Origin: Candidatus Latescibacterota bacterium
GTDB lineage: Bacteria; Latescibacterota; UBA2968; GCA-2709665
Direction of reading: 5' to 3'
Assembly (NCBI GenBank): GCA_965203805.1
Contig: OZ241917.1
Coordinates: 2,805,718-2,869,717, forward strand
DNA length: 64,000 nucleotides
In this document: positions 16,861 to 33,230 of the stretch, in pieces
Layout: each line of letters starts with the position of its first letter
How positions within the stretch are numbered: position 1 is the first letter of the stretch
Translations under genes and position numbers: made by a program
The notes under the pieces: model-generated
Seen by the model: the letters and a program-made list of their open reading frames with translations, nothing else
Database searches by the model: none
What the model was told of the DNA's origin: nothing

Positions 16861-17229
16861 TTATAGATTCAGCGTATGACGGAGAGCCGCATCAACTTTG
16901 GCCATTGGAAGCGATCCAATGACGCGGTCAATTGCCGATTCCACAATTGTGGCAAGATTGTCAGCCATAACTACAGAATCTGTGAGTAGACCCGATTGTT
17001 GTCCTTCGGGGGTGGAAAGTAGAATGGCAACACGGCTCGAGTGATTGGCGCGAAACATCCTGCTGGTAATCATCGCCACGACCACTTGGGATAAACCAGT
17101 CTGAAGATTATCAGATTGAACGATTAATCCCGGACGTGGCTTGGCTGTAAGCAAGTTAGAATCCGGAAAGAGCACTAAGACGACGTCACCGCGACTATAG
17201 GTTGGATTTGGCTGCGTCATAGTTGTCAT
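16861..17229 (-). CDS. MazF/PemK-family type II toxin (endoribonuclease)
   Basis: N-terminal YSRGDVVLVLFP...KPRPGLIVQSD pattern typical of PemK/MazF. It overlaps the upstream antitoxin ORF. Confidence 0.8.
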   Translation of the reverse strand: MTTMTQPNPTYSRGDVVLVLFPDSNLLTAKPRPGLIVQSDNLQTGLSQVVVAMITSRMFRANHSSRVAILLSTPEGQQSGLLTDSVVMADNLATIVESAIDRVIGSLPMAKVDAALRHTLNL

Positions 17230-17455
17230 AAATACTCATTTCCGGGCTTTCCCAGTCTTCGGCAAAGGCCGTCAGGCGTTCGCGCAAATCTGCCGCCTGC
17301 GCCTTGTCAATACCGCGTCCTCGTAAATCGATAGAATGTGTTGGCAGAAATGTGACAATGACGGGCGTATCTTCATGTATATCGCTGGGTAATTCCGGAA
17401 GTTCAATCTTACCGCCGCGATACACTCCTTCAATCGTCGTGAGCATGGGGATCAC
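17195..17455 (-). CDS. type II antitoxin, DUF104/AF2212-like N-terminus
   Basis: The TIEGVYRGGKIELPELPSDIHEDTPVIVTFL pattern, an acidic C-terminal tail, and a position immediately upstream of and overlapping the MazF gene. Confidence 0.65.
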   Translation of the reverse strand: MIPMLTTIEGVYRGGKIELPELPSDIHEDTPVIVTFLPTHSIDLRGRGIDKAQAADLRERLTAFAEDWESPEMSIYDNYDAAKSNL

Positions 17456-17582: not shown

Positions 17583-18206
17583 TCAAAACGCTTCGTTTGA
17601 AACCAACTTCTTGTAGAAATGCGCCTCCACAGTCTTCAGGCGTGACTGATAAATCGATTTTTCGGTTGGTCCGGTTGAATCAAACACCCGAACAAAAAAG
17701 CGGCATTTTTTCGACTTAGACCTCTCAAACAAGTTGGATGTTGCCGAAAGAAAAGACGCTTCCGAGATGTCCTGATTCATCACAATATTCTGCAATTTCA
17801 GTGCCCGCCGTTCCTCTCTCCGGTGAGGTAGGCCAGTCTCCCTAACGACCAGTCCCTTAGGGGTGAGATTTATGTCGAAAATGTACTCAATGGATTCATC
17901 GTCCCGAACCCAGCAGGACGGAACTTCGGTCCCTTTACCTGCTGATATGGGGCCCTCATGCTCCCGCGCTATCCGCAGAGCATCCCTTACAGAATCGGGA
18001 TCTGGCGAAAATCCGTGCTCTTGCGCGGCTTCCCGAAATTCTTCAAGCCGTTGCCTTGCCTCTTGGTTTTGCACAACCATCAATTGGTTTTGCACAACCA
18101 TCAATATGAGAAGAAACATCGCAAGAATAAAAATAGATGTGATCAGATCCGTAAAAGACGGCCATACATTGAGTGAGGTATCCCTACGAGTTCGTCTCTT
18201 ATTCAT
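17583..18206 (-). CDS. MotB/ExbD/ZorB-like stator subunit: single TM helix with a conserved Asp, and no recognisable OmpA-type peptidoglycan-binding domain
   Basis: Basic N-terminus followed by VWPSFTDLITSIFILAMFLLIL (compare the MotB and ExbD/TolR TM-Asp motif). The start lies 16 nt after the MotA-like gene. Confidence 0.65.
   Translation of the reverse strand: MNKRRTRRDTSLNVWPSFTDLITSIFILAMFLLILMVVQNQLMVVQNQEARQRLEEFREAAQEHGFSPDPDSVRDALRIAREHEGPISAGKGTEVPSCWVRDDESIEYIFDINLTPKGLVVRETGLPHRREERRALKLQNIVMNQDISEASFLSATSNLFERSKSKKCRFFVRVFDSTGPTEKSIYQSRLKTVEAHFYKKLVSNEAF
18064..18105 (-). repeat. perfect 2 x 21-nt in-frame tandem duplication (MVVQNQL/MVVQNQE)
   Basis: TGGTTTTGCACAACCATCAAT occurs at 18064-18084 and again, identically, at 18085-18105. 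Confidence 0.95.
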
Positions 18207-18222
18207 TGCCAGATACCTACCA

Positions 18223-20052
18223 TCAGAAGAAACGCTTCAGTTTGTCCATAAAACTTAACTTTGGCGGACGGTCATCCCTGCGTTTAAGTGCATCAGCCAT
18301 ATCGCTAAGTGTGCCCTCCATAGCCTTTACAGACGCCACAATCTGTTTTTGCTCGCCGACGACTTTGGGAAGATTACTCAGCGTTTGAATGACACCTTTC
18401 AAATTTCCAACAAGTGTCTGATCCAGACGCTCAATGGCACTTTCCACGTCCGAAAGGCCCGTGCGTAGCGTGCCCACCTTTTCATCCAAGTCGGTGTTGT
18501 CTCTATCGCTAAATTCCTGCTGAAGCTTCAGCAGAGCTTGTTCTGTGGCGTGAATGGCGTCCAGTTGCGCCTTGATGTTGTCAAAAACGGGTTTGTACGT
18601 TGGCTCATCGGGGTTGAGTTTTTGAATCAACTGATATGTTTCCTCCATTGTCAAGCCCAAGGTATTCATTCTTGCATAAAAGCCATCCATCATTTTATCG
18701 ACTGCGGATTTCAACTCTTCCAACGGCTCACTGAGCCTGGTAAAATTAGAAATGTGTTTCACAAAATTCTCGCCCGACTTACGTATATCATCGGCTCCAG
18801 AGTTGAGCGCATCGCAAGCAGTGTTGAGGGTGTCCAAAAGCGGTTTGAGCGCGACTTTGAGATGGTCTGAATGATCTTTGAGTGTCTTTATGAGAAGGTC
18901 CGCTTGCTCTGCCATCAATGCCGAATGTCGATACGAGAAATCCTCAAGTGTGCTGCTCCATTTCTCACTCACTTGCTCGTTGGAGGCACTCGCTTTTTTT
19001 AGCGTATCACTGGCGTCGTTAAGCGTTTTCAAAAAAGGGACAAAGGATGTCGAGACCTTTTCAAAATGCGCTTCGAGTGCTCTTTCTATAGAGTCTGCCT
19101 GACTTGCCATCAATGCGGAATGTCGATGCGAGAAATCCTCAAGTGTGCTGCTCCATTTCTCACTCACTTGCTCGTTGGAGGCACTCGCCTTGTTGAGCAT
19201 GTCACTGGTGTTGTTGAGAGTTTGCAGAAAAGGCCCAAATGAAGCCGATACCTTCTCAAAATGTGCTTCAAGTGTGGTTTTGAGATAGTCTGTCTGATCC
19301 GTCATAAATTCCGAATGTCTATCTGCAAGACCTTTAAAAGCTTCTTGAACCGCCTCTTTCAGATCCACCTCAGGCAAAAACAATCTGAATTTGGGGGCGA
19401 TTTCTTCATTGCAATAGGTTTCTATCTCGGCAATCAATACAAGCCTTTTCTTGCTGAGAATTAGGAAACAGATAGTCAATACAATCATGCAACCTAACCC
19501 AGCGATGCTGGTTATAAAGGCAAACTCCATCCCAGAGAACGACTTGACGATATTTTTTAGCATATCCGGCAGGCTTTGTGTTGCATTGTCTCCGGTATTT
19601 TGGATAATGCTTTCAATCGGTCGGATGACTTGGTAAAGCCCGATAAATGTCCCGAGAAGACCCAATACGATCAAACTCACGCTCGTTGTGCGAATCGCTT
19701 CGTCATTTCCGCAAAGATCTTCCTCTTCTCTCTGTACCATTTCATCAACGACTGGTGGTTTATTTTGCCGAAACCCCGCCCAGAGCAACTTCAGCCATTG
19801 TTGTGTTTTCGGATTCGAAGTAGAATCCGAGGGTGCATTTGCTGCTCTGCTGGCAATAAATCCTTGATGATTTTTTTCCCAACTTTCCAAGTCTGCAAGT
19901 GCATTTCTCGATCTGGTTATCTTGCGCCACATTTTTGCTAAAAACCAAAGGCCCAAGCAAAAAAATATGCCCATAACGAGCAACCAAATTACCAAAAAAT
20001 TCGATGGATTCGACCCAAAAAATAAATCTGACATATTGGTAAATTTCCTCAT
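18223..20052 (-). CDS. MotA/TolQ/ExbB-family proton-channel protein with a helical C-terminal tail of about 400 aa (ZorA-like)
   Basis: Three TM segments. Family hallmark motifs are VLGLLGTFIGL (compare GLLGTVxG) and AFITSIAGLGCMIV (compare AxxTTxxGL). The long helical tail has about 65-aa repeats. ATGA start/stop overlap with the upstream gene. Confidence 0.8.
   Translation of the reverse strand: MRKFTNMSDLFFGSNPSNFLVIWLLVMGIFFCLGLWFLAKMWRKITRSRNALADLESWEKNHQGFIASRAANAPSDSTSNPKTQQWLKLLWAGFRQNKPPVVDEMVQREEEDLCGNDEAIRTTSVSLIVLGLLGTFIGLYQVIRPIESIIQNTGDNATQSLPDMLKNIVKSFSGMEFAFITSIAGLGCMIVLTICFLILSKKRLVLIAEIETYCNEEIAPKFRLFLPEVDLKEAVQEAFKGLADRHSEFMTDQTDYLKTTLEAHFEKVSASFGPFLQTLNNTSDMLNKASASNEQVSEKWSSTLEDFSHRHSALMASQADSIERALEAHFEKVSTSFVPFLKTLNDASDTLKKASASNEQVSEKWSSTLEDFSYRHSALMAEQADLLIKTLKDHSDHLKVALKPLLDTLNTACDALNSGADDIRKSGENFVKHISNFTRLSEPLEELKSAVDKMMDGFYARMNTLGLTMEETYQLIQKLNPDEPTYKPVFDNIKAQLDAIHATEQALLKLQQEFSDRDNTDLDEKVGTLRTGLSDVESAIERLDQTLVGNLKGVIQTLSNLPKVVGEQKQIVASVKAMEGTLSDMADALKRRDDRPPKLSFMDKLKRFF
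18700..19330 (-). repeat. three tandem units of about 195 nt (65 aa) inside the ZorA-like tail
   Basis: An 84-nt core at 18911-18994 recurs at 19106-19189 with only 2 mismatches. The protein units are ..LEAHFEKVS(A/T)SF.PFL(Q/K)TLN..SD.L.KASASNEQVSEKWSSTLEDFS.., and the third unit is degenerate. Confidence 0.85.
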
Positions 20053-20948
20053 CCAGCAATGATCACTTTTGCTTTGAGATCTATCTCATCGGTTTGTGAA
20101 TTCTTAAGCCCATGCGCCAAGCACCTTACAATTCGGTCCCGGGGTTGTGTCCCGCTTGTATCCTGACTGGCAATTTGAAATCGGCGCCTGTCAAAAGAAT
20201 CCCCTGGACGCGCTCCAATTATCTCTACTTCATCCCCTCCCAAATCCATCATCAGATCAAAAACACGCTGCGCGTCCTCCTGTCGATTCTGTGTTACTCG
20301 ACTGTCGATTTCGGGTAAGAAGTATCGAATCATCTGTGCGGGACGGGTACGGCGTAGAAGGCTTTCTATTGAAGACGCATTGAAAACTTCCTCACCTATA
20401 AGAGCACCTTTGAGCCAAAGAACCGGATCATCTGAATCATCTTGCATTTCGCGCAACGTCAACAGATCCTGTATTTGTTTTAATGGCTTCTCAACCTCCC
20501 GATCAACATATACAGCGAAAGATGCACGGTCATCCTGCGACATCGCGCTCTTTATTTCCTCTAAAGCCGACCGAAACTGCCTCAAATACGTTACACGGTC
20601 TTTCAATTCGCGCCAATTTTCTTCATCCAAATCATCTGAAAAGCTACCTACACTTTCTCTTATTCTTCTCTTCAACAATTTTATCCATTCAATATCTTCT
20701 TTATTCTGACCATTTTCCAAATCTTTGATGTTTTCTACTTCTGTACGGAGATTTGAAACGTGGGTCGCATAAACCTGTACCCGGTCCGACACTATAGCCT
20801 TCACGTCTTCACTTGCTTCTGATCGGGATTTTAAAACCTGCTTTCTTAACCATATAACAGACAAGAGTGCTATTAGAGAAATAATGAATGAAATGACATT
20901 CAACAATGAATCAAATTCCTTAAACATCAAGCTACCTCCAAGAAGCAT
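20049..20948 (-). CDS. membrane-anchored coiled-coil protein with a GrpE-like C-terminal domain (putative nucleotide-exchange factor for the adjacent Hsp70)
   Basis: N-terminal TM segment (LLNVISFIISLIALLSVIWL) and a long charged helical region. The C-terminus EVEIIGARPGDSFDRRRFQIASQD...IVRCLAHGLKN...LKAKVIIAG follows the GrpE pattern G..FDP..H.A....V...GY....lRpA.V.V. TAATG stop/start overlap with the Hsp70 gene (20946-20950). The longer ORF reaches 20990. Confidence 0.55.
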   Translation of the reverse strand: MLLGGSLMFKEFDSLLNVISFIISLIALLSVIWLRKQVLKSRSEASEDVKAIVSDRVQVYATHVSNLRTEVENIKDLENGQNKEDIEWIKLLKRRIRESVGSFSDDLDEENWRELKDRVTYLRQFRSALEEIKSAMSQDDRASFAVYVDREVEKPLKQIQDLLTLREMQDDSDDPVLWLKGALIGEEVFNASSIESLLRRTRPAQMIRYFLPEIDSRVTQNRQEDAQRVFDLMMDLGGDEVEIIGARPGDSFDRRRFQIASQDTSGTQPRDRIVRCLAHGLKNSQTDEIDLKAKVIIAG

Positions 20949-23900
20949 TATGTGTAGGAAAAGTTCATACACCTTCGATGTGCTTCCCATACGTATTCAA
21001 AATCACTGCCATCTTTTTCATTGCCAACCCGATAGTTATACAAAAGGTCCGCTTTCCCCGCTACATCACATTTCAGTTCCAGGCAGTAAGTCCAGAATTG
21101 TGCGTTTTGAAATACATCATCGTCTTTTGGCACAGTTAGATTGGCAACGACCCTATTTTCAGCCTGGGTTACTCTTGTGTTTAAGTCCCACCCAAAAAAC
21201 TCAACAAGCGCGATTCGGCTACTTGCCCTTTCTATTTCTATGATGAGGCCTGGGTTTTCCGGAGTGATGGTCGTATCTGGCTCCAACGGCGTCCAGCGAT
21301 CAAAAACGAGTACAAAATGGGTAAATGCACGCATGCAGATGGGATAATTTAATTTTCGTATCCCTTTTGGAGGCGAATAATAGAGATCGCTCAAACTCCT
21401 ACCATACTCAACAGCACCCAAAGCCACGCTTTTTTTCAGTTTTTCTGGTTCGAAAATGATCTCTTTCGCCTGTACTCTTTCTTTCGCAACCGTTTTTACG
21501 AGCGGGAGACGAGAGGTGTTTCCTTCCAAGATCAGATAATCTAACTGAGTATCGGCGATCTGATTCTTGTTGAACAGATAGTGCTGCATCTGATTGAGCT
21601 TATCAAAGCCTTTTTTCAGCTCCTCGCGGACAGAATTATAGATGTCGTTAATAGCTAAAGGTGCCATATCTGGAAGTAAGTTGTCATTCAAAAAACGCAG
21701 CGTGCCTTCTATACTCAGAGTGGCATTCTCAGGACTTTTACTCTTGAGAGAAACGCGTGGCCAATTATCGGGGATATTGGAGGATTCGATCAGATCTAAA
21801 ATGCCGTTCTCTCCACCATGAAGATGTTCAGCATAATCTTCGGGTTCCAGAGCCTCTCTAAGAAAAGACGTTATTCTATTGTTCTCCTTTATTGTTTCTG
21901 CTAATCCATAGAGTTGGGAGAAATTCTCCTCTTCGATTTTTTCCAGTGGTCTCAGTGCCTTATCCAATGTATCGGGAAAAGGGAATTGGGTTCTGTAAAC
22001 CTCAGGGACCATTTGAAAATACAGATATTGCGCGATTTTGAAAGACAGCAAGTCGCCACCCAGCGAAACATCTCCGTCAGAGGCGAGAATTTCAATGTCG
22101 GGTCGTCCATATTCTTGAGGGGTTAATCGTACAATTGAGATGTCCGTGGTCCCTCCTCCACAATCGAAGACGCCATAAACAATATCTCGACCAAGGTCCT
22201 GCTTGATAGCGATATCCAGTGCATAAGCAAGGGCGATGGCCTCCGGTTCACTAATCTCAAGAATAGGTTTGAGATTCATTCCCTGTGTCGCCCACGCAAT
22301 GGCTTTTCTCATTGACTCCTTTTGGCGATTAAAAACTGCGGGATAAGTAAAAACGGCTTCTGAGGGCACATAACCCGTATTTTCTTGGAAACTCTCCAAT
22401 AAGAAACGGATGTAAAGCCCTACCTTTTCAATCGCACCAACTTCAATATATCTATTGCCCTGGGTATAAATTCTTCCATTTAAGCTGAGGCTCCCTGTAC
22501 CCAAATCATTATAAATAATCTGTTCGTGGGGCGTTCTCAAGGTGCGCTTAAAACCCCAAGAAATTGATGAGATATGTTCAGAATGAAACCGCAGGTCTTT
22601 AAGTGTATGACCAAATTTGACAAGGGCTTCTTTTTCCTTCAAAACAGTCCGCCTTACGTCAGCCCCCGGCTCTTGTAAAACTTCCAAAAGATCATCGGGG
22701 TTTTTAATCGCCAAAAACTGAAACACAGTGGGTATTTCCGAGCCCATTTCCGAGACATCTTCGCCAAGGTCTATTTCCAGTAGTTCCTCTTTGTCTTGGG
22801 CGTCCTGATCTATATATGCGATACACGAGTTCGTGGTACCGAAATCTACTGCAATAGGAGAATCCAGAAGCTGAGGAGGTCGGATTTGAACGGGAAGAGA
22901 GATGGATTGATGGAACGTTTCGCCTTCGCCAACGGTAGCTCCGTGAATGACCAGAGTTGCCTTATCAGTGGTGTTCTCCTCAACTGTCGGAAGTGTGTCT
23001 TGATTGAGAATCAGGTCAATTGGAGAACTCGAATTATCTATAAGAATTGGCTCCTGATCTGTAATTTGAATTCTTGTATTGAGCCAAGGCTGATTTGATT
23101 CAACCCGAGTAATTCGAAGTGGTGGACCACTTAAGTGCTTTACCGTTACGGTAAAGCTCATCTTTTTGTTTCCTCCAGATACAAGTGCCTGCTCGTTGAC
23201 AAATTGACGGCTGAACTTCCACTCAATCTTTGGCTTATTAACATAGCGCAACAACAACCTGAATGTTATCTCGCCCAAACTGTCAAAAGGGAAATTTAAA
23301 ATAGCAGGGCAAGTCTCTTCAAAGTCCCGTCGCCGAGTGAGACTAAATCTAAATGGATGCTCAGGAGAAAGTTTATCGGGAAATTCCTGGTCCGGCGGTA
23401 AGTCAAAATGACCTTTGCCTTCAGACAGGAAAGGCGCGGCCTGAAGCCTCAGCGGAGAATCGTGATGAACCGTAAGGGTGACCCGTCCGTCGTCAGGGTC
23501 TATTGCGCAGGGCTGATATTCGACTGTGTCGTGTTTAAACTCGTGCTCATCTGGTGAAACAAGCCAAATCTCCGGTGCTTTCTCGCATCGAACAAAAAAA
23601 ACAACAGGTTTAATTGACGAAAGTGATGAAAGCAATTCTAATCGCCCGATATTGCGCTCATGTGCATTATGCGAACAACGGAGTTCTACACTTTCATCGG
23701 TATCAAGTCTATACGGTAGATCAATATCTCCGTGCCGTTGGGTGATTCCGAAGCCCTGAGCCTTTAATTCACGAATTTCTATGGGATTGACGCCTTCGTT
23801 TTTAACCTTTAGCGTGATGGGTATACCAGAAAAAATCGTCCAGGGAGCACCCCTAAGGTCTTCGTCCGGATCTGGAGTGACTGTTATTCTAACTAACTGA

Positions 23901-23998
23901 TATGCACACCCCCCGCAGAAGATATCTTTGGGTGAAATTTGCCAGTGGCATCTGGGGCATACCGGTGTGTTGCCTATTGAGTTCATTTTGAAACGCAT
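20948..23998 (-). CDS. Zn-ribbon + beta-sandwich region + Hsp70/actin-fold ATPase fusion protein
   Basis: CPRCHWQISPKDIFCGGCAYQL at residues 14-35. About 350 aa of beta-rich sequence follow. Hsp70 motifs then appear: IAVDFGTTNSCIAY (phosphate-1, about aa 382), VFDCGGGTTDISIV (phosphate-2) and LILEGNTSRLPLV (adenosine). Confidence 0.85.
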   Translation of the reverse strand: MRFKMNSIGNTPVCPRCHWQISPKDIFCGGCAYQLVRITVTPDPDEDLRGAPWTIFSGIPITLKVKNEGVNPIEIRELKAQGFGITQRHGDIDLPYRLDTDESVELRCSHNAHERNIGRLELLSSLSSIKPVVFFVRCEKAPEIWLVSPDEHEFKHDTVEYQPCAIDPDDGRVTLTVHHDSPLRLQAAPFLSEGKGHFDLPPDQEFPDKLSPEHPFRFSLTRRRDFEETCPAILNFPFDSLGEITFRLLLRYVNKPKIEWKFSRQFVNEQALVSGGNKKMSFTVTVKHLSGPPLRITRVESNQPWLNTRIQITDQEPILIDNSSSPIDLILNQDTLPTVEENTTDKATLVIHGATVGEGETFHQSISLPVQIRPPQLLDSPIAVDFGTTNSCIAYIDQDAQDKEELLEIDLGEDVSEMGSEIPTVFQFLAIKNPDDLLEVLQEPGADVRRTVLKEKEALVKFGHTLKDLRFHSEHISSISWGFKRTLRTPHEQIIYNDLGTGSLSLNGRIYTQGNRYIEVGAIEKVGLYIRFLLESFQENTGYVPSEAVFTYPAVFNRQKESMRKAIAWATQGMNLKPILEISEPEAIALAYALDIAIKQDLGRDIVYGVFDCGGGTTDISIVRLTPQEYGRPDIEILASDGDVSLGGDLLSFKIAQYLYFQMVPEVYRTQFPFPDTLDKALRPLEKIEEENFSQLYGLAETIKENNRITSFLREALEPEDYAEHLHGGENGILDLIESSNIPDNWPRVSLKSKSPENATLSIEGTLRFLNDNLLPDMAPLAINDIYNSVREELKKGFDKLNQMQHYLFNKNQIADTQLDYLILEGNTSRLPLVKTVAKERVQAKEIIFEPEKLKKSVALGAVEYGRSLSDLYYSPPKGIRKLNYPICMRAFTHFVLVFDRWTPLEPDTTITPENPGLIIEIERASSRIALVEFFGWDLNTRVTQAENRVVANLTVPKDDDVFQNAQFWTYCLELKCDVAGKADLLYNYRVGNEKDGSDFEYVWEAHRRCMNFSYT

Positions 23999-24008
23999 CC
24001 CAAAAAAA

Positions 24009-27000
24009 TCACTTCATCACATAGATATCGTCTTTGCAGAACTTATCGCGATACGCCAATGGAGTAGCAAATGTATCGATTCCATCCCTCATTTTTTCCA
24101 ATTTTTCATTTAAGGCAGTTTCGTCCAAATTGAACTGCCTGAGCGTCTGATCGTAATCGCTCTGATATGACCTGTCCAGCAAAATTCGAAAGGTATGATC
24201 TGCGGAGATATCCTCGTTCCCCACGCGAATCTGAGTACTTGGAAATACCTTGTTGAGCAGCCAGCTCTTTAATGCGAGCCGCTGAATAAAACACTCGTGG
24301 CGATTTTCTCTACGCCACTGCTCTTCCAATGTGCGGGTCGCAATATCTAGACGGTCTTTTGCGTCTGATTTGCTACCTATGATTAACCGTGCGCGCTCGA
24401 GATTGTGACCGTATCTATCTAAATGCTCAATACCTCTTAGCTTAAACGGACGGCAGAACTCTCTCTGAATATTATCGTATTTGATAATGCTCATAATTAT
24501 CCCATTGATCAGGGAACTCTGTGCATTAATCAGTGATCGAACTTCCCCATCATTTTGGGGTGGCAGGATGTCGGCAAATTCCCAATAATCTTTGATCATG
24601 TGACGACGGTACACGTTGATAGGATCTGCTCCGGTATTTGCCCGGTAATCACGATCAAGATCAAAAATATTTCCAATAGATAAAATGGGAAATGCCATCC
24701 ATTGGTTTACAAAAACAACGGCGTCATTTCTGTGTTCTGTTGCTTGATATGATTGTCCTTTGTGCGGAGCAACAAGATGGTTGACTTGATTGACCCAGAC
24801 ATCGTCCTTAACGCCAATGCGATTATCGGAAATATCTGCCAGACCGGGCAATGCCAGACGTGTATCAGAAACACGAGGTTCAGCTCTCTGGCTTCGCTTG
24901 ACAATTTCATCCCGCTCCTGGTCGGCGAAACGATTGCGTAACTCCTCAGTGGCGTGAATATCTGTTTTGAAATCCCCAAAAAGTTGAAATGTGTATTCAT
25001 CAATAGTCCTGAGAACGGCATCCCAATTGCGAGGGGAATGACCTCGCCTGGCAGACCGGTTGAATATCTCTCTGGTGCCTGTGTTTATGGTGTCGATATC
25101 TTCACCCTGTGCCGTAGCAATATTGCCAAACAGGATTTTGGCTTCTTCAGAACGGAAATATTTCTCCAGCCCTCCTCGACATAGACGCGGCAAATCAGTT
25201 TCTGGCCATCTTCTTGCCTGTCGGAGATGGTCTTGAATTTCTTCAGGATAATTTAGATCAAGTGTGAGGTTCAGGTTTCTTTCTCCCGTTACGCGCTGAA
25301 TATATGCCTGATGGATCTCCAAGAAACCTCTGGACATTTCCTGCAGGTTCTCGCGAAAACCTTGAACCTGTGCTTGCAGACCGCTCACTCTTACACTAAC
25401 CTTACCATCATCTCCGGTAACCTCTGCACGACTCCCCAGCAAGCGGATGATTTGTCCCACCAAATCGACGAGAAATCGGGCAGCATCCTTGCGAAAACGC
25501 TTCCGCACCCAATCGGAGAGTTCCCGCTGAGTGGCGTCAACCTGATTTCGAAGGTCTCGATAGATCTTTTGGGCATCCTCGCGAAAAGCCCTGGCTTTTT
25601 CGTCTTCGTAGTGACGCAACGCTATCTTTTTTGTTCGCCAGGCCAGAGGGAGATCTCGCGCTTCTTTCAACCGCTGTTCAAAGAGACGAAAGTCTCCTGA
25701 AAACTCAATATTTATAGGGGATATTTGGGGGCCTTCCATTTGCTCGTTAGCCAGCCTATTCAAATCTCGAAGCACGGATGCCAATGCCTCTTTGCTGTGT
25801 TCCAAGAAGCTTTCGACATAGTTGGGACCGCACTCTAAAGGATTGCAAAGCATCCCGATACAATAATCTTTTACTTTGTCTTCGAGTTCTGGAAGCAATC
25901 GATCTGCATTGTCGAGGATCTGTTTAATATCGTCCCCTTTAATAGTGCCTTCCTCTTTGAGCTTTTCAGATACCTTCTGTCGTATTTCAAGTGTTAGGCC
26001 TTCAACTCTCGACCTGGCTTCTGCCACCTGTCGTTCAAGGATCGCAACATCCTGAGCCTCGGGTGCTTTATCGATGCTTTGCAATAGATCGGTAAAAACC
26101 GGTTTCAGAGTCTCATTTATTGCATGATCCGCCAGCGTAAAGTCTGCACCGGGACGGTTTAAGGCACGGTTGATGAGTCTATCTGTGGTGAGCTCGATCT
26201 GTTCCAAATGGGGTCGTACATCGGCTGTAGAAAACCCAGGAGGAATTTTATTATCCGCCGCGATTATAAAATCCACCAGGTACTGTGCGAATTTATTCGA
26301 TGCAGCATTGGCAAGACGAGGTTGGTTGATCTCCATTTGAGAGAGACCAAATGAGGCATATCGGCATGGGAAGTACTGAACATAGTTGTCGCTCTTATAT
26401 CTCACCATTTGCTGCAAAAATTGCTCCATATTGGAGCGGGCACTGCGCTTGTCCATCGCGAAACGAGTCTGTTCGAAGTCGAGCAACAGAAACTCAGCGA
26501 TCATCTGAAACACATCGGCAAAGTCTGCAATGCGGACCCCGGCAAGATTGCTATCATCAAGCAAATAGACAGTTGAGAATGGGGGTGCTGGAACGCTGTG
26601 TTCACTGCCATCCCACTCGAATTTGTGTCGAGTAAAATGGTCGTCGCCTGTACTCTGTGCATCAAAGTATGGCTGCATGTAGTGTTCGAGTTCTTTGAGG
26701 GCGGCAAAACCATTAGCCCGTGTAGTTTGGCGTGCTCCCCCCACAATCTCATCAAAGACAGAAGGTAGTACCAAATGGGCTGTGCAGACCGCATTTGGAA
26801 AAAGATATCGACACAAAAATCCCATGTCGATGAAAGAGCCTGAACCAGTTCCTCCTGCGACGGATGTGACGATTACGATTTCCAGATCGTTGGAATCGGC
26901 ATCATAGTTGGGAAATCTCCGCACCATTTCTGTCCTTGCCTCTGCGCTTTGAACGCGGTTGACCTTTCTTTCTATTTCTTCTCGAAGTTTATCATAGTGA

Positions 27001-27440
27001 TGAAAAAAGGCTAATCGGCCACAAGGTCGAATCTGCCCAGCTCCTTGTGTGATCGCTGTGGAGGGAAGGGAGTCAAGAGCTTCTGGAAACCACGACCAGA
27101 TATGAGGATACATACCTTTGTTATTGCGATATCCTTCCAATTCTTGAGGCATAACTCTACCATCTACTTTTTCACGGGCAGAAAAGTCTATTCTCCGATC
27201 CAGAAGGTCTGTTTCATTCTCCATAATGTCAATATTTCGAATGTCGGTATCAAACCAGAGGTACTCCATCAGAGGCAAACCAATCATCCTGTATTTTTCG
27301 TAAAACATTCGACGGAGACGCCGCAGAACTTCCTTACCCGTGCCTCCAAGACCAATCAGAACAGTTGGCCTGATGCTGATCCGACCTTCTCCTCGCTGTG
27401 CTCCACCAAGGCGTTCTGCCGTAGCATTTGTTTCCATCAT
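24009..27440 (-). CDS. giant tubulin/FtsZ-superfamily GTPase (Tubulin_2-like) with a helical C-terminal extension of about 900 aa
   Basis: GLGGTGKEV (aa 30-38, T1-like), TQGAGQIRPCG (aa 131-141, T3-like) and the tubulin signature VTSVAGGTGSGSFIDMG (aa 191-207, T4 GGGTGSG-like). Confidence 0.8.
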   Translation of the reverse strand: MMETNATAERLGGAQRGEGRISIRPTVLIGLGGTGKEVLRRLRRMFYEKYRMIGLPLMEYLWFDTDIRNIDIMENETDLLDRRIDFSAREKVDGRVMPQELEGYRNNKGMYPHIWSWFPEALDSLPSTAITQGAGQIRPCGRLAFFHHYDKLREEIERKVNRVQSAEARTEMVRRFPNYDADSNDLEIVIVTSVAGGTGSGSFIDMGFLCRYLFPNAVCTAHLVLPSVFDEIVGGARQTTRANGFAALKELEHYMQPYFDAQSTGDDHFTRHKFEWDGSEHSVPAPPFSTVYLLDDSNLAGVRIADFADVFQMIAEFLLLDFEQTRFAMDKRSARSNMEQFLQQMVRYKSDNYVQYFPCRYASFGLSQMEINQPRLANAASNKFAQYLVDFIIAADNKIPPGFSTADVRPHLEQIELTTDRLINRALNRPGADFTLADHAINETLKPVFTDLLQSIDKAPEAQDVAILERQVAEARSRVEGLTLEIRQKVSEKLKEEGTIKGDDIKQILDNADRLLPELEDKVKDYCIGMLCNPLECGPNYVESFLEHSKEALASVLRDLNRLANEQMEGPQISPINIEFSGDFRLFEQRLKEARDLPLAWRTKKIALRHYEDEKARAFREDAQKIYRDLRNQVDATQRELSDWVRKRFRKDAARFLVDLVGQIIRLLGSRAEVTGDDGKVSVRVSGLQAQVQGFRENLQEMSRGFLEIHQAYIQRVTGERNLNLTLDLNYPEEIQDHLRQARRWPETDLPRLCRGGLEKYFRSEEAKILFGNIATAQGEDIDTINTGTREIFNRSARRGHSPRNWDAVLRTIDEYTFQLFGDFKTDIHATEELRNRFADQERDEIVKRSQRAEPRVSDTRLALPGLADISDNRIGVKDDVWVNQVNHLVAPHKGQSYQATEHRNDAVVFVNQWMAFPILSIGNIFDLDRDYRANTGADPINVYRRHMIKDYWEFADILPPQNDGEVRSLINAQSSLINGIIMSIIKYDNIQREFCRPFKLRGIEHLDRYGHNLERARLIIGSKSDAKDRLDIATRTLEEQWRRENRHECFIQRLALKSWLLNKVFPSTQIRVGNEDISADHTFRILLDRSYQSDYDQTLRQFNLDETALNEKLEKMRDGIDTFATPLAYRDKFCKDDIYVMK

Positions 27441-27468: not shown

Positions 27469-28497
27469 TCAATTTTTCTGAGTCTGAATGCGTGTCATAA
27501 AAAACGTGATTACAAAGGCGACAACACCAACAAAGACACACGACCAGAACAAGGCACTTTCATAAGTGGTCTGCCAACCCAGCAGATAATCCAAATATCC
27601 ACTGAGATAAAAGATGATCGTCAACGCACTCCCCACAACTGTAATCACAGCCGAACGCGCAAAAGCATGCGCGGGATGTCGCTCCCGATTTTTTATTTGG
27701 ACCGTAAAAATCACATATGTGGAGAATAAGTAAATTCCGATAATGATGATCGCCAGCAAAGCCCACATTAGAGAACCAGAAAAAATAGACGGTCTGGATG
27801 CCGACATATAAGCAGGAGGCTCCATACCTGGAACAACCTTGTCCTCATAATCCGATTTGCCCAATAAGGGTCTGGCTTCATCTATTGCCACAGCGTAATT
27901 GAGATTCTGGGCACGTCTGGCGGTGTCCTGTTTGGTAAATGTTACAATGCCTACTACCTCTCCTTGTTCATTGAACAACGGCCCTCCGCTATTACCCGGT
28001 GAGACGGGTGCCGTGGTCTGGACAACCTTGTATCCATCCTGATTTCGTATCTGCGAAATGATGCCATCGGTGACAGAAAACTCCTCGCCTAAGGGATTTC
28101 CGATCACGACCACAGGGTCGCCGGGTTTTACTCCTGCCACTGTCCCAAGACGCGCCTGGTGAAGGGTCTGTCCACCCAGATCGGCCTTCACAAGCGCGAG
28201 ATCTTTGTGCTCATCTTTTGCCACAATTGCCACGATAGGCATCCATTCGGCTCCCTGTACGCGCACCCATCCTTCTCGAATACCCTTGATCACATGCCAG
28301 TTGGTCAGAAAATAGCCTTTTGCACCATCAATAGATACTCCCGACCCCTGACTCTTTGCGCCATCTGTTTCAATTACCACGAAGGCGACAGCAGGACCTT
28401 CTTCCTCAGCAATCCGCGAAGCAGTGTTATTGCTCGTCCCCCCACAACCCCACAGGACCAATAAAAAACCTATACGCGCAAGATGTGATGTCATCAC
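27469..28497 (-). CDS. trypsin-like (S1C/Trypsin_2) serine protease, predicted lipoprotein with a C-terminal 3-TM anchor
   Basis: Lipobox-like LLVLWGC. Catalytic triad contexts are TNWHV (His), KDLALV (Asp) and GNSGGPLF (Ser). Three hydrophobic helices occupy the last 110 aa or so. Confidence 0.85.
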   Translation of the reverse strand: MMTSHLARIGFLLVLWGCGGTSNNTASRIAEEEGPAVAFVVIETDGAKSQGSGVSIDGAKGYFLTNWHVIKGIREGWVRVQGAEWMPIVAIVAKDEHKDLALVKADLGGQTLHQARLGTVAGVKPGDPVVVIGNPLGEEFSVTDGIISQIRNQDGYKVVQTTAPVSPGNSGGPLFNEQGEVVGIVTFTKQDTARRAQNLNYAVAIDEARPLLGKSDYEDKVVPGMEPPAYMSASRPSIFSGSLMWALLAIIIIGIYLFSTYVIFTVQIKNRERHPAHAFARSAVITVVGSALTIIFYLSGYLDYLLGWQTTYESALFWSCVFVGVVAFVITFFMTRIQTQKN

Positions 28498-28509: not shown

Positions 28510-30204
28510 TCAAAATCGTGCAGCCAAACGTTCAACCTTCATCGACATATCGCCCTTCTTTAATATCAGAGCTTTATAAGGCTCTAACAAAAGCTTGATA
28601 TTTCTTGGCTGTTCTTCTACCTCCGACTCCAAGTCTTTCGACATATCATTACCCAAAGTATCTTCCACTATGACGTCCTCATCTGGACGGAAAGCGAACT
28701 GAAAAATAGCATCTCGCTTGATGTGTCCCAAACTGATTTCGTCGCCTGCGGCATTTGTTATTTTCAAATCAACCTGCTTGCTCGCGGGCCCCAATCGAAG
28801 CCGTTCCGTGTGTTCCTGAACTTGATTCAGGCTGTCTGTAACCCGATATTTCAACGGATAGTACATTATCCAAGCGATCATAGCAATCAAGATTATCAAG
28901 CCAACAAGGAGTGCGACCCAGGCGATCCAGGGACCTTTAAGGGGTGTGATTTGCAATTCGCCAGAAATCGTACCACCTATCGGCACGACAGTTGCAGGCT
29001 GTTGATGGAGGTACTGGATAATATCAGTAGGCGTATAGATGCGGTTCAACACACCCGGCTGGTCGGTGAAGTACCGCGCTTTGTAAGCCTCTGTCATGCG
29101 AAACGAATTAGGCGGAATTTCTATAGACACAGCGAAATAATAGTCCGCTGGCACAGGGCCAATACGGACGAGGCTCAAGTAGTCCCAGAAATTTCGATGG
29201 TCTGGATAAAAAGGGCCAAAGTGTACCAGGCAGGTATAGACAGAGGTATGTTGGGTCGCAGACATAAGTGTATCTACGAGTGCTGGGGGGCTTACCCGAC
29301 CGTAGTGATACGATCTACGGCCTAACAAAATGCGATCCTGCACCTTGCGGGCGTATACCTGCGGAGGTTGGACTTTAAACTCCGATCCTGCAGGTTCAAT
29401 GTTAATGTGGCTGAGTCGTGATTGTAGTGTAAAATTAAAACGCAGTCGGCTTTTTTCACTAATTTCCGCAACGATTGGTCTGATCAACCCGGGAGCTAAA
29501 ATAATGGTATCATCAATCGGCTTCATCACCATCGGCTCCATTCCCTCGTTCTGCAAAACTGTGACGAGATGCTCAAATTGGGAGCGGAATTGTGGCTGCG
29601 TAAGCAACAGATAAAGGACAAAACCTTTCATTCCCCGGTAGTAGAGCCGACGATCAGGACGGATCCGGATTTCGGAATTGGGGTTCATGCTTTGCAGTTC
29701 GCTATGTCCTTTATGTGGGACGGGATTAGACAGAAGCCCTTCAAACATCCGCTTAAGAGGGATAGCCCGCAAAACTTTGATCGTATCGCGGTTAAAACAA
29801 GCATAAAGTGCTCTGGCGTCGAGATCGCTGGCTGCCTGAACATTGTCCGTGAGCATCATCACAATCGGCGCCCTGTCATATCCCGTATTAAATGCCGCCT
29901 CAAGATTGGTATATCCACCCCAGGTCTTTGTCTTTTGGAAACTCTCGGCACCCTGCCAGGCTACTGTATCTGGCCGGCTTGAAACAAAAAAAACTGTCTC
30001 TGAGGGAATGTCCTTCTGGTCGCACGCCTTTTTCAGGATATTGACCAGAATATTGAGTTCTTTACTGTTGTCGAAACCAGTCATCGAACCAGAGCCGTCA
30101 ATCTGTATGCTCACTCTTTGGGCATATACCGACGATGCTTGTGCGAACAATATGCCCAATATGATAATAAAATAGGCCACTGCCTTAGGCCTCTCTATCC
30201 CCAT
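28510..30204 (-). CDS. secreted vWA-domain protein with a C-proximal TM helix and a cytoplasmic tail of about 105 aa
   Basis: Signal peptide ending VYA-Q. MIDAS DGSGSM, GGYTNLEAAF and IVMMLTDN. TM segment PWIAWVALLVGLIILIAMIAWIMYY (nt about 28855-28935). 20-nt overlap with the upstream gene. Confidence 0.8.
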   Translation of the reverse strand: MGIERPKAVAYFIIILGILFAQASSVYAQRVSIQIDGSGSMTGFDNSKELNILVNILKKACDQKDIPSETVFFVSSRPDTVAWQGAESFQKTKTWGGYTNLEAAFNTGYDRAPIVMMLTDNVQAASDLDARALYACFNRDTIKVLRAIPLKRMFEGLLSNPVPHKGHSELQSMNPNSEIRIRPDRRLYYRGMKGFVLYLLLTQPQFRSQFEHLVTVLQNEGMEPMVMKPIDDTIILAPGLIRPIVAEISEKSRLRFNFTLQSRLSHINIEPAGSEFKVQPPQVYARKVQDRILLGRRSYHYGRVSPPALVDTLMSATQHTSVYTCLVHFGPFYPDHRNFWDYLSLVRIGPVPADYYFAVSIEIPPNSFRMTEAYKARYFTDQPGVLNRIYTPTDIIQYLHQQPATVVPIGGTISGELQITPLKGPWIAWVALLVGLIILIAMIAWIMYYPLKYRVTDSLNQVQEHTERLRLGPASKQVDLKITNAAGDEISLGHIKRDAIFQFAFRPDEDVIVEDTLGNDMSKDLESEVEEQPRNIKLLLEPYKALILKKGDMSMKVERLAARF

Positions 30205-31432
30205 TGAGAGGATAACAGTACAGCATTGTGGAATTATCTTCTCTCATCAAGACATATACACTATGCCCAAAACCTGCTGGTGCGGTCACAGCAGTCAGAC
30301 CAGTGTTGAACGACCAGAAGCGCGGACGAGAAATGCCATTGTTGCGGTCAAAATGGAATAGTGACACGAGGGGCAACCCATTAGGATCTTCATTATCTTG
30401 AAAACCTATGAGAACATTGCCAAAAGAGCTACACATGTCCGTCTGACTCATGAAGGCTGGATACGCTCTATCAACACTACTATCCAGGGGATTCACTAAA
30501 TTTACGCCTTCAGATGTGACCACAACGAACCAATTCTGATCGTCAATGTCTATGGAGTGAAGGGCTGTCGCACGGAGATCAGGTATGGTATCTGTAATGG
30601 GTTCGAGATTATCCTGAGTAAAAGAAATTATCCTGACATCACCATTCTCTTGTCTGGACGCTAAGCGAAGCAGGCCAGTGCAGTTTGATCCTACGCAATG
30701 GCTCTTGCCCCCTTCTTCAAATCCTTCATAAGGCTCCGAGACACCATCATCTGTCAACAAGGCCATGTTATACTCACCTACGAGCGCCACCATAAAATCT
30801 CCGCCTTGCAGTGGAACCAGCGTTTCAATATCAAATGGCGTGTCTATTTCTCGAGGTTTGTAAGCAGTTTCCTCTCCTTCTACCCAAAAATTATTGATGG
30901 ATGGTGTATCTCCTATTCTTATTCGACGATTTGCTTCGTCAAGTACGAGCAACCGATTTTTGAACAACCAAAATTTCTGTACATTCTCGGCACATGGCCA
31001 CCAATTCGTGCTCATAGCCATATAGTCGCTGCAGAGCGCAGACACCGGAAAAACATGGAGATTACCGTGAGTGTTCAGGACATATATCCAACACTGGTCA
31101 AAGCGAACTTCGGCGATTCCCTCGGTGATGTGTGAGAGAAAAAAAGGGGTGCTTTCGTGGAGAGGGTTGGGAAAAACGACCATATTTCCCGTAGCTTTCT
31201 CAACAACCAATGCAACGCCGAATATGTTCAAGAGCAAATCAGGTTTTCCTCTAAGCGGAACTATGTGTTCCTCGGGCGGGCGACTTTCCGTGGGCGCTAC
31301 GGGTGCTGCAACTAGAGTCGCTTTATCCGGGAGACTGCCACATTGAGAGCAGAAATTGGCGAGTGGCGGGTTGGTTTCTGCACCACAGGCGTTACATTTC
31401 CACGTGTTTGTCGTCCAATTCCATTTGACCAT
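30185..31432 (-). CDS. N-terminal Zn-ribbon protein with a beta-rich (propeller-like) body; first gene of the island operon
   Basis: CNACGAETNPPLANFCSQCG at residues 13-32, no TM segment, and beta-strand-rich sequence throughout the remainder. Confidence 0.7.
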   Translation of the reverse strand: MVKWNWTTNTWKCNACGAETNPPLANFCSQCGSLPDKATLVAAPVAPTESRPPEEHIVPLRGKPDLLLNIFGVALVVEKATGNMVVFPNPLHESTPFFLSHITEGIAEVRFDQCWIYVLNTHGNLHVFPVSALCSDYMAMSTNWWPCAENVQKFWLFKNRLLVLDEANRRIRIGDTPSINNFWVEGEETAYKPREIDTPFDIETLVPLQGGDFMVALVGEYNMALLTDDGVSEPYEGFEEGGKSHCVGSNCTGLLRLASRQENGDVRIISFTQDNLEPITDTIPDLRATALHSIDIDDQNWFVVVTSEGVNLVNPLDSSVDRAYPAFMSQTDMCSSFGNVLIGFQDNEDPNGLPLVSLFHFDRNNGISRPRFWSFNTGLTAVTAPAGFGHSVYVLMREDNSTMLYCYPLNGDREA

Positions 31433-31557
31433 CGAGTCGGCCCTCGCCCCCAGGTAAGCGGGTTCTTGGAACTTACAGTAAGTCTTCTACGCAAGATGCG
31501 TTCATGTTTCTTCATGCTCCCAGCTAACGAAAAGCGTTGAAATCCCCCACCACGGTC

Positions 31558-31615
31558 GCCGACCCTTCGACCCTTCGGCAGGCTCAGGGCAACGCATGCT
31601 CAGGGAGCGGCTCTG
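31558..31615 (-). repeat. REP-like intergenic element (inverted copy of the 14401/54986 family) at the island's right edge
   Basis: The reverse complement reads GAGCCGCTCCCTGAGC..N..CCGAAGGGTCGAAGGGTCG. It shares the GCCGCTCCCTGAGC and CGAAGGGT(C/T) blocks with the other two copies. Confidence 0.7.
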
Positions 31616-31732
31616 AATGCAGGCTCAATGAGATTCGTCTCCTGTATTCCTTAATTTGCGCGATCTATGGTGAATCGATTCACTGCCATTACTCGTTTTG
31701 CCGCGCTTTTTGGTTTTCATCCTGTCGATCTT

Positions 31733-31803
31733 GCCTGCCTGTGCCGCCTGCCTGTGCGTGCTGTCGCCCGCACGCAGACAGGTGCCCGGCACGGCAGACA
31801 GGC
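31733..31803. terminator. long GC-rich imperfect hairpin between the ADH gene end and the island operon start (possible insulator/terminator; no U-tract)
   Basis: Arms GCCTGCCTGTGCCGCCTGCCTGTGCGTGC / GCACGCAGACAGGTGCCCGGCACGGCAGACAGGC flank the loop TGTCGCCC. Confidence 0.3.
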
Positions 31804-31842
31804 CATCCATGTAAGTTTCATTTTCCGAATTCAAAACGCCAT

Positions 31843-32934
31843 TCAAGGCTCAACCGTTACTTTGATGGACCGCTCACCGGCCGCGACGAGGTCGAAGCCA
31901 TCCTGGAATCTCTCGAGCGGCAGGCGATGGGTCACGATGCGGTCCATCGGCAGGAGGCCCTTCCGGATCATATCGATCGCGATGGGATAACATCCGGGCC
32001 CCAGGTGGGCGCCGTGGATGTTGAGTTCCTTGGTGTCGCCGATGATCGTCCAGTCCGTCGTTACGGGCTCCCGCATCACGCTGAATTCGACGAAAGTGCC
32101 GAGTTTGCAGATCATGTGCAGGCCCTGTTCCACGGCGGCCGGGTGCCCGGTCGCTTCGATGTAGACGTCGCATCCGTATCCATCGGTGACGTGGCGCACT
32201 TCGCGGACGACGTCTGTTTTTCCCGGATTGAAGACCAGGTCCGCGCCGCAGGCTCTCGCCACGTCCAGGCGGTCGTCGTTAAGGTCCAGGGCGACGAGCA
32301 GCCGGGGGTTCTTGAGGCGGGCGGCGGCGACCATTCCCAGCCCCAGTGGTCCCGCGCCGGCGATGACCACGGTGTGGTCCAGTTCGACTTCGCCGCGTTG
32401 GACCGCGTGAACGGCGCAAGCCAGGGGCTCGATGTACACCGCGTGGTGGGCCGGAATCCCCGTGGGGACTCTATAATTGAGCGCGTCGGCGGGGAAACGC
32501 ATGAATTCGGCCATCGCGCCGAAGGTGTTCTGCCGGAAGCCGTAAATGTCGTGACGCATGCACATCCAGTACTGGCCGCGCCGGCAATAGCGGCACGCGT
32601 GGCACGGGACGATCTGTTCGGAAATCGCCGTGTCGCCAATGGCCAGTCCGTATTTCTCTCCGGCGCCCGGACCGAGCATAACCACCTCGCCGATGAATTC
32701 ATGGCCCGGGACGACGGGGGCCTGGCAGTACCCCTTCCGGTGTTCGTCTCCCCAGAAGAGCGGTGCGCCGAGATAGCATTTGAGATCGCTGGCGCAGATC
32801 CCCGCGGACCTGACGCGGACAACGACCTCCTCCGGTCCCGGAAGCGGCACGGGGCGTTCTTCCAGCCGGTAGTCTTCGGGTCCATGGCAGACAACCGCAG
32901 GCATGGTATCCGGAAGTCCGGTTTGCGTCGTCAA
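31843..32934 (-). CDS. zinc-dependent medium-chain dehydrogenase/reductase (polyol/threonine dehydrogenase-like)
   Basis: GICASDL, PGHEFIGEV, the structural-Zn cluster CHACRYCRRGQYWMC, and the Rossmann motif VVIAGAGPLGLG. Confidence 0.85.
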   Translation of the reverse strand: MTTQTGLPDTMPAVVCHGPEDYRLEERPVPLPGPEEVVVRVRSAGICASDLKCYLGAPLFWGDEHRKGYCQAPVVPGHEFIGEVVMLGPGAGEKYGLAIGDTAISEQIVPCHACRYCRRGQYWMCMRHDIYGFRQNTFGAMAEFMRFPADALNYRVPTGIPAHHAVYIEPLACAVHAVQRGEVELDHTVVIAGAGPLGLGMVAAARLKNPRLLVALDLNDDRLDVARACGADLVFNPGKTDVVREVRHVTDGYGCDVYIEATGHPAAVEQGLHMICKLGTFVEFSVMREPVTTDWTIIGDTKELNIHGAHLGPGCYPIAIDMIRKGLLPMDRIVTHRLPLERFQDGFDLVAAGERSIKVTVEP

Positions 32935-33230
32935 CGGCGAACTCCTCCGAAGCCCGGCCAGGCTTTGAATTTCCTGCCTGCGGAGAACACGGACCCGTCC
33001 CCGACGGGCAGACGTCCGCGGGTTTCTTTACAATACCAGACAGTCGAATCCGTGCTTCGACAACAATCGTGCGTCTGCCGGAGACACCAAGATAGGACGA
33101 AACAACACAGATGGCAACCGAATCGAATGGATTGGTCGCCAGGGTTTTTCCTTGTGTCCGCCTTATCCGCTTATTTACATTGTGGAGCAAATTTCCGTGC
33201 GCTTGAAGACCTGATTCAGAGGAGAGATTG

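Follow-up and report, generated by a model that had tools for sequence, protein, structure and literature searches.

An atypical Hsp70-family protein encoded beside a tubulin-like FtsZl1 protein in a conserved operon of Latescibacterota

Hsp70s are usually seen as J-protein-driven chaperones with a lidded peptide clamp, and the tubulin-like FtsZl1 family has, to our knowledge, been without a known function since 2010. Members of both families are encoded side by side in an operon within a 64,000-nt stretch of a Candidatus Latescibacterota genome (GenBank assembly GCA_965203805.1, contig OZ241917.1, positions 2,805,718–2,869,717; hereafter the window). The gene under study, g5, encodes an atypical Hsp70-family protein of 1016 aa with an ATG start (positions 20948–23998, minus strand), and its span in the open reading frame (ORF) listing is exactly the one assigned in an initial annotation of the window. 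The operon is an uncharacterized conserved gene combination that joins the Hsp70 superfamily with FtsZl1-centered systems; we found no literature description of it, although papers on eukaryotic HSP70 swamped several of the searches.

FtsZl1 was defined by Makarova and Koonin in 2010, who described vWA, P-loop GTPase, kinase, and OmpA neighbors and proposed membrane remodeling; Hsp70, DnaK, GrpE, and a MotA-like component were not reported in that study (PMC2875224). The operon resembles this FtsZl1–vWA–OmpA system in its central FtsZl1, an upstream protein with a metal ion-dependent adhesion site (MIDAS) motif, many membrane components, and an OmpA protein in relatives, but it contains neither a P-loop GTPase nor protein kinases, and the window copy is without an OmpA domain. 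Kaur, Burroughs, Iyer, and Aravind (2020) described DO-GTPase/GAP1-N2 conflict systems with a tubulin + vWA theme in 52% of neighborhoods and an HSP70 + GrpE theme, with DnaJ-fused partners, in 14%; the tubulin and HSP70/GrpE themes were non-overlapping, and MotA went unmentioned (PMC7159879). Shared with those systems are non-housekeeping tubulin/vWA and HSP70/GrpE modules, zinc-ribbon N-terminal adaptors, near-membrane components, and peptidases. The systems of Kaur et al. are built on a DO-GTPase + GAP1 core, whereas the operon described here has no GTPase match in Pfam, its only Walker-A-like strings lying in g1 and g3. It further departs from them in that the tubulin-like and Hsp70-like genes are adjacent, a J-domain is missing, and a MotAB/ZorAB-like pair has been added.

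The MotA-like protein, with its very long cytoplasmic coiled-coil tail, and its MotB-like partner, with the conserved transmembrane aspartate, are reminiscent of Zorya. Unlike in Zorya, however, the ZorA and ZorB matches fall under the curated cut-offs, the stator-like proteins are accompanied in the cytoplasm by a tubulin-like GTPase and by an Hsp70/GrpE pair, and no PADLOC match to ZorC, ZorD, ZorE, ZorF, or ZorG was obtained among the nine island proteins. The arrangement also recalls FtsA–FtsZ, where an actin/Hsp70-superfamily ATPase is likewise encoded beside a tubulin-superfamily GTPase with a conserved C-terminal motif, but here an Hsp70-type ATPase takes the place of FtsA, each protein has large extra domains and a length of about 1000 aa or more, and neither gene belongs to cell division. 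With DnaK–DnaJ–GrpE, HscA/HscB, and HscC, g5 has in common the catalytic residues of the nucleotide-binding domain (NBD) and, probably, a domain after it that is related to the beta part of the substrate-binding domain (SBD-beta). As in canonical Hsp70 systems, there is a GrpE-type exchange factor, in this case encoded next to g5. The differences are about 370 extra N-terminal residues, an NBD roughly 100 aa larger, the absence of a lid and of a J-partner, and an association with a tubulin-like protein and a stator-like motor in place of proteostasis genes.

The insertion-expanded Hsp70 NBD of g5 occupies aa 377–871 (21386–22870, minus strand). Read directly from the translation, it contains the phosphate-1 motif AVDFGTTNS (aa 383–391), the phosphate-2 motif VFDCGGGTTDISIV (aa 610–623), and the adenosine motif LILEGNTSRLPLV (aa 822–834), so that all three motifs named in the initial annotation, including the EGNTSR form of the last, are confirmed. 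The expansion by insertions that had been proposed there is likewise evident in the AlphaFold2 model, in which low-confidence insertions at residues 410–460 and 700–745 bring the domain to about 490 aa, where DnaK has about 385 aa. Against Pfam HSP70 (PF00012), g5 scores 52.5 bits (cut-off 20.6; E = 3.2e-14), with only aa 545–660 in the aligned part, and a profile of 22 family members searched against the PDB aligns with the E. coli DnaK NBD over residues 381–658 (E = 1.5e-31); by these two comparisons the likeness to Hsp70 is well beyond chance. When the family was compared with 24 canonical Hsp70s using hhalign, the probability was 100% (E = 5e-42), and the match was colinear up to template residue 476, inside SBD-beta. 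Foldseek searches with the model returned Hsp70-family chains, including DnaK and BiP, as the top 50 PDB matches. In an alignment of 31 family members, with a mean identity of about 20%, D385, G387, K484, E584, D612, G614–616, D619, G648, and G826 are invariant, and T617 and G647 are at least 90% conserved. D385, K484, E584, D612, T617, and D619 align with DnaK D8, K70, E171, D194, T199, and D201, respectively. Given this conservation of catalytic residues, g5 is probably an active ATPase.

The region that follows the NBD forms a C-terminal beta domain (20951–21385, minus strand; aa 872–1016), which, judging from profile and model comparisons, is probably a strongly diverged SBD-beta. A canonical SBD-beta hidden Markov model matches the C-termini of four long Hsp70-like proteins recovered along with g5, namely P0123 (E = 4e-12), P0109 (E = 3e-10), P0031 (E = 2e-4), and P0130 (E = 3e-4). 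The C-terminal profile of the window clade in turn matches that of the broad family (hhalign probability 96%, E = 3.3e-9), and the broad-family profile aligns colinearly with canonical SBD-beta (probability 83%, E = 9.4e-6), compared with E = 0.46 for a control alignment to the NBD. The broader profile was required for this link; jackhmmer started from the g5 C-terminus converged within the close clade. The initial annotation had described the C-terminus as unlike the DnaK SBD, which stands insofar as there is no canonical SBD and the direct profile comparison gives E = 0.11, but not insofar as remote SBD-beta homology is detectable. In the Foldseek search with a separate model of aa 872–1016 (pLDDT 77), five of the six best PDB matches contain an Hsp70 SBD (Ssz1, Chlamydomonas HSP70, BiP twice, and the DnaK SBD), each of them individually non-significant, and DnaK and the Ssa1 SBD-beta appear again further down the list. 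The full g5 model aligns over about 650–670 columns to full-length, ATP-open DnaK and BiP, as compared with 528 for an NBD-only target. No SBD-alpha lid is present in g5, which ends about 145 aa past the NBD, where DSSP assigns strands and a single 4-residue helix.

N-terminal to the NBD, g5 carries a zinc ribbon (23894–23968, minus strand; aa 11–35) and an all-beta region of about 340 aa with approximately three beta-sandwich domains (22871–23893, minus strand; aa 36–376). The ribbon matches Pfam Zn_Ribbon_1 under the cut-off (E = 6.6e-4), and each of its cysteines (C14, C17, C28, and C31) is at least 90% conserved in the 31-member alignment, in agreement with the CxxC...CxxC N-terminus noted at the outset. 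The roughly 350 aa of beta-rich sequence said to follow it are borne out by DSSP on the AlphaFold2 model, which finds strands only at aa 38–373, with a pLDDT of about 80–90 there. Searched against Pfam at E ≤ 10, the beta-sandwich region had zero matches; its first and third domains are weakly alike (hhalign E = 4.7e-5, probability 68%). The model of the whole protein (pLDDT 76.7) comprises a short ribbon, the beta-sandwiches, the NBD, and the C-terminal beta domain. Relatives begin at the second Met (MNS...), and the real start of g5 is therefore probably M5 at position 23986. PADLOC matches of g5 to PDC-M61B (E = 4e-4) and PDC-S25 (E = 9e-3) cover short ATPase motifs only and were set aside as uninformative.

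The gene downstream of g5, g6, encodes a membrane-anchored coiled-coil protein of 313 aa with a GrpE-type C-terminal beta domain (20049–20990, minus strand) and one transmembrane helix (aa 28–46). Its last ~60 residues (aa 250–312) align to GrpE residues 134–193 with an hhalign probability of 89% (E = 2.4e-6), the comparison set being GrpE homologs collected at dnaK loci, starting from an E. coli GrpE sequence; only this part of GrpE is detectable in g6. Genes at the same position in relatives match Pfam GrpE directly, with two in locus L090 (one scoring 26.2 bits, just over the cut-off of 25.8), three in L091, and one in L002. The GrpE-like neighbor proposed in the initial annotation is thus supported by both the profile alignment and the equivalents in relatives. 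The g5 stop and g6 start overlap as TAATG, read directly. The listed ORF of g6 is probably too long at its start (window positions 20946–20990); in relatives the gene begins with the ATG that shares bases with the g5 stop, which would put the start of g6 at M15. As for a J-protein, the nine island proteins contain no HPD tripeptide and no Pfam DnaJ match at E ≤ 0.1, which accords with the earlier remark that the island holds no J-domain, and no DnaJ family is listed among the called genes of the 13 related loci retrieved, although a J-protein could still be encoded elsewhere in the genome. With no J-domain involved, stimulation of the ATPase would need the protein's own N-terminal domains or its client.

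On the other side of g5 lies g4, an FtsZl1-type tubulin-like protein of 1143 aa (24009–27440, minus strand) that matches the full Pfam Tubulin_2 profile (E = 1.7e-66) and whose nucleotide-binding motifs, GLGGTGK and GGTGSG, are conserved in 13 sequences. Wherever a locus extends far enough upstream (L001, L002, L005–L009, L086, L087, and L090–L094), a Tubulin_2 gene immediately precedes the Hsp70-like gene. The C-terminus of g4 (24009–24080, minus strand) ends in a conserved L-x-Y-R-D-x-(F/H)-C-K-D-(D/A)-I-Y-V-M, of which the Y-x-D core is recognizable in 13 divergent homologs and Y1130 is at least 92% conserved. By analogy with the FtsZ C-terminal peptide, this motif could be a docking peptide. 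FtsZl1 genes, annotated "tubulin-like domain-containing", are also found on plasmid pNPUN01 of Nostoc punctiforme (L095) and plasmid p2 of Azospirillum sp. TSA2s (L096), where the neighbors are vWA, caspase, CHAT, S8 peptidase, OmpA, PEGA, and DUF4384, with no Hsp70; the Hsp70-coupled version is accordingly one subtype among FtsZl1 systems.

The association extends beyond this pair. All eight genes (g1–g8) are syntenic across the Latescibacterota loci, and jackhmmer recovers homologs of g2, g4, g5, g7, and g8 in the distant loci L002, L086, and L087, with g6 also found in L086. The core therefore comprises FtsZl1, the Hsp70-like protein, one or more GrpE-domain proteins, a MIDAS-motif membrane protein, and one protein each of the MotA-like and MotB/OmpA-like kinds. 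Both g1 and g3, the protease, are more clade-restricted, though L090 also has a protease. A word-indexed search placed the relatives of g5 in 32 clusters, and an exhaustive HMMER search of 1.84 billion representatives returned 99 at E < 1e-10, with 27 at E < 1e-30; many of the 99 are 830–1100 aa long with the NBD starting near residue 400–500. In a set of one genome per species, full-length relatives occur only in four Candidatus Latescibacterota metagenome-assembled genomes. Across the whole clade the Hsp70 has shed its lid, J-proteins are not seen linked to it, and beta-sandwich and zinc-ribbon domains, both sensor-like, have been gained. A GrpE-type factor has been kept, and the gene has become fixed beside a tubulin homolog and a stator-like motor.

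We propose, with a probability of roughly 0.55, that g5 and g6 work without a J-protein as an Hsp70/GrpE module dedicated to remodeling or tethering FtsZl1 within an envelope-spanning complex encoded by the operon. In such a complex, the MIDAS-motif protein g2 and the HtrA-like protease g3 are predicted to be extracytoplasmic, g7 and g8 would form in the membrane an ion-driven stator of the ZorAB/MotAB kind that bears a long coiled-coil tail, and g4, g5, and the GrpE-like exchange factor g6, which in this clade is predicted to be membrane-anchored, would sit on the cytoplasmic face. There, g5 would clamp and release a segment of another component in an ATP-driven cycle. This client is most likely the tubulin-like g4, whose assembly, disassembly, or membrane tethering would come under control of the cycle, and the translationally coupled g6 would reset the nucleotide state of g5. 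The intact NBD residues, the probable SBD-beta remnant, and the coupled GrpE-type factor together argue for a real Hsp70 nucleotide cycle, and the membrane anchor of g6 would confine nucleotide exchange to the membrane, where g7/g8, g2, and g3 sit. If the coupling is true, the operon offers a tractable bacterial case of an Hsp70 cycle controlling a tubulin-family protein, supplies a first concrete partner for FtsZl1, and joins predictions made separately for the tubulin/vWA and HSP70/GrpE conflict modules.

Several observations weigh against this proposal. The choice of g4 as the most likely client follows from strict gene adjacency, and the lack of a linked J-domain would call for some other trigger of ATP hydrolysis. 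Aligned directly to the SBD with hhalign, the C-terminus of the window clade does not reach significance (E = 0.11), and Foldseek with the model of aa 872–1016 returned no PDB match below E = 0.2, at TM-scores of about 0.35. The protein g2 is possibly a vWA protein, an assignment made from its MIDAS-like motif. The window copy of g8 is without an OmpA domain, and tblastn finds no OmpA remnant; lacking this peptidoglycan-binding domain, the window version might function in another way or less well. With respect to a defense role, the context is circumstantial, the immediate flanks of the window operon are ordinary metabolic genes, and no PADLOC system model matched the nine island proteins beyond the ZorA/ZorB-like pieces.

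For the system as a whole, we infer a conflict/defense-type or membrane-remodeling response to an envelope signal. The conflict-flavored context consists of the low-GC island, a MazEF-like pair, integrases, TIR_2 and RHS neighbors, the occurrence of FtsZl1 near caspase, CHAT, and vWA genes elsewhere, and the assignment of tubulin and HSP70/GrpE modules to conflict systems by Kaur et al. (2020). Carried further, the operon might belong to a hitherto unrecognized class of envelope-anchored immune or programmed-cell-death machines driven by ion-motive force, in which a lidless, J-independent Hsp70 and a membrane-tethered GrpE gate a stator-signaled, tubulin-like polymer; we regard this as possible but somewhat unlikely. 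Were it true, a chaperone cycle would start or time the action of a cytoskeletal effector in bacteria.

An unlikely alternative to a clamp-and-release cycle is that g5 acts mainly as a structural or polymerizing actin-fold partner of FtsZl1, in the manner of FtsA and FtsZ, with ATP governing its self-assembly. At the membrane it would then anchor FtsZl1 filaments or assemble together with them, its beta-sandwiches and zinc ribbon serving as docking modules and the conserved g4 end motif (Y-R-D-x-x-C-K-D-D-I-Y-V-M) as a possible docking peptide. The invariance of the actin-fold/tubulin-fold gene pair fits such an arrangement, as does the absence of a J-domain partner and a lid in g5, and for conflict systems of this kind Kaur et al. 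(2020) envisage multimeric assemblies of tubulin and HSP70 (PMC7159879). However, a GrpE-type factor that is both conserved and translationally coupled points to a true Hsp70 nucleotide cycle, the g5 ATPase is much nearer to DnaK than to any filament-forming actin-fold family, and an SBD-beta-like domain has probably been retained.

We also consider it quite improbable that the operon is a Zorya-like anti-phage system with g5 as its sensor or effector. According to this explanation, the ZorAB-like stator would sense that infection has disturbed the envelope, g5 would capture a phage protein through its beta-sandwiches or its SBD-like domain, and the tubulin-like protein would then polymerize, blocking infection or killing the cell. 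The ZorA and ZorB models are indeed the best matches to g7 and g8. The former (18223–20052, minus strand) is a MotA/ExbB/ZorA-like membrane protein with three transmembrane regions and a coiled-coil tail of about 400 aa, which matches PADLOC ZorA partially (E = 1.9e-13), NCBIfam ZorA_1 at 41.3 bits against a cut-off of 190 (E = 6e-11), and Pfam MotA_ExbB at 22.7 bits against 22.9. The latter (17583–18206, minus strand) pairs a MotB/ZorB-like N-terminal transmembrane segment (WPSFTDL, with its Asp) with a non-OmpA C-terminus, and matches PADLOC ZorB over aa 3–60 only (E = 2.7e-5) and NCBIfam ZorB1 at 14.9 bits against 400. Not only is the ZorA_1 score of 41 bits far from 190, but much of the PADLOC score comes from the coiled coil, and the Pfam and PADLOC scans of the operon revealed no ZorC, ZorD, ZorE, nuclease, or other recognized effector. 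The length and repeat-driven length variation of the g7 tail are in keeping with a Zorya-like system, as is the genomic setting in part.

That setting has the marks of mobility. The low-GC block extends over ~14.7 kb (about 16.8–31.5 kb of the window) at 43–50% GC and comprises the eight closely packed minus-strand genes g1–g8; the operon itself (~14 kb) has 46.0% GC, compared with 61.8% and 60.6% in its flanks, and it lies 12–15 GC points under the flanks in the window, L001, and L007–L009. A tyrosine recombinase/integrase gene is located just downstream of g8 in L006 (16487–17386) and L094 (17123–18010), suggesting an integrative element, and the operon occupies different neighborhoods in different genomes. 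The GC offset, the integrases in relatives, and the varied neighborhoods suggest that the operon is a horizontally acquired or mobile island. Together with the integrases and the MazEF-like pair, this low-GC island speaks for a Zorya-like system, as do the neighbors found in relatives (an SLFN/AlbA_2 gene upstream in L094, a TIR_2 protein in L092, and an RHS protein in L091) and the FtsZl1 genes near caspases. On the other hand, the window flanks are metabolic, and the g5 family is absent from the 72,556 plasmids of PLSDB, where only generic DnaK matches over the NBD were found. No tRNA gene occurs anywhere in the window.

It is highly improbable that g5 is a divergent general-purpose chaperone of the DnaK, HscA, or HscC type that works in bulk proteostasis and lies in the island by chance, even though relatives are annotated "molecular chaperone DnaK (HSP70)" and the catalytic residues are intact. 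Against the DnaK/HscA equivalogs NF001413, TIGR02350, and TIGR01991, g5 scores 66, 60.9, and 61 bits, about 10-fold under the respective cut-offs of 648, 822, and 708. A neighbor-joining tree of NBDs built on Kimura distances sets the family apart from 24 canonical Hsp70s (bootstrap 166/200), and these results, with the conservation of the operon, uphold the initial view of g5 as a non-housekeeping Hsp70. The 370 aa of extra N-terminal domains, the missing lid and J-protein, and the confinement of the family to one operon type and a rare clade are equally at odds with a general chaperone. Finally, the possibility that the ATPase comes from a different actin-fold family (MreB/ParM, FtsA, or sugar kinases) and resembles Hsp70 only superficially, a better fit to such a family having been named in the initial annotation as a finding that would overturn it, is practically negligible, as NCBIfam MreB models reach only E = 0.02–0.04 on g5 compared with 1.5e-31 for the DnaK NBD, the hhalign probability is 100% across the whole NBD, the Foldseek top 50 are all Hsp70-family chains, and a GrpE-type partner is encoded alongside.

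Within the stator-like pair, the g7 tail contains a 195-bp tandem repeat (18910–19319, minus strand; ~2.1 copies with 82–87% matches), and g7 proteins of close relatives range from 542 to 633 aa, with tails of different length. Repeat and length variation together suggest that gain or loss of repeats tunes the tail. The g8 counterparts in L001, L002, L005, L086, L087, L090, and L094 carry an OmpA domain. The window g8 resembles its relatives only in aa 1–46, after which an unrelated domain of ~160 aa, with no database match, takes the place of OmpA; the junction (18063–18105) contains a perfect 21-bp tandem duplication encoding MVVQNQL-MVVQNQ. This variant is not a one-off pseudogene, since L093, the closest relative, shares it with 88% identity over the last 178 aa.

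The upstream part of the operon begins with g1 (30185–31432, minus strand), a 415-aa protein with a zinc ribbon, weakly matched in Pfam, and beta-rich sequence. It is conserved only in L001 and L005–L009 and is specific to the Latescibacterota clade. Both g1 and g5 open with a zinc ribbon (that of g1 at 31330–31432, minus strand); in L001 and L007–L009, a second Latescibacterota clade, g1 has a degenerate first CxxC in its ribbon (C-x-K-x-G-R-E-H-H). A role for g1 as the DO-GTPase was considered and rejected: its sole Walker-A-like string, GFEEGGKS, is not conserved in homologs, and there is therefore no P-loop in g1. The next gene, g2 (28510–30204, minus strand), encodes a membrane protein whose N-terminus resembles a signal peptide and which has a MIDAS-like motif and one transmembrane helix at residues 429–447. 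Ten homologs all share D36, S38, S40, and D120, with T99 nearly invariant among them, which fits a MIDAS motif; Pfam gave no match for any of the ten, vWA included, and the g2 profile searched against the PDB likewise gave nothing. The product of g3 (27469–28497, minus strand) is a trypsin/HtrA-like serine protease with C-terminal transmembrane helices (Pfam Trypsin_2, E = 1.5e-29; NCBIfam Do-family, E = 7.8e-34, under the cut-off; transmembrane-like segments at 246–334), in which the Walker-A-like string ARPLLGKS is found.

At the downstream edge of the island lies a MazE/MazF-like pair (16861–17455, minus strand), composed of a MazF/PemK toxin (Pfam E = 2.1e-14) and an 86-aa putative antitoxin encoded upstream of it. 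The syntenic locus L093 retains the antitoxin-like gene, with no toxin gene called there. Beside the island, a 564-aa ORF with a TTG start (31537–33231, plus strand) has no family match and is probably spurious, and a 363-aa ORF (31843–32934, minus strand) has the length, position, and orientation of the zinc-type alcohol dehydrogenase gene of L093.

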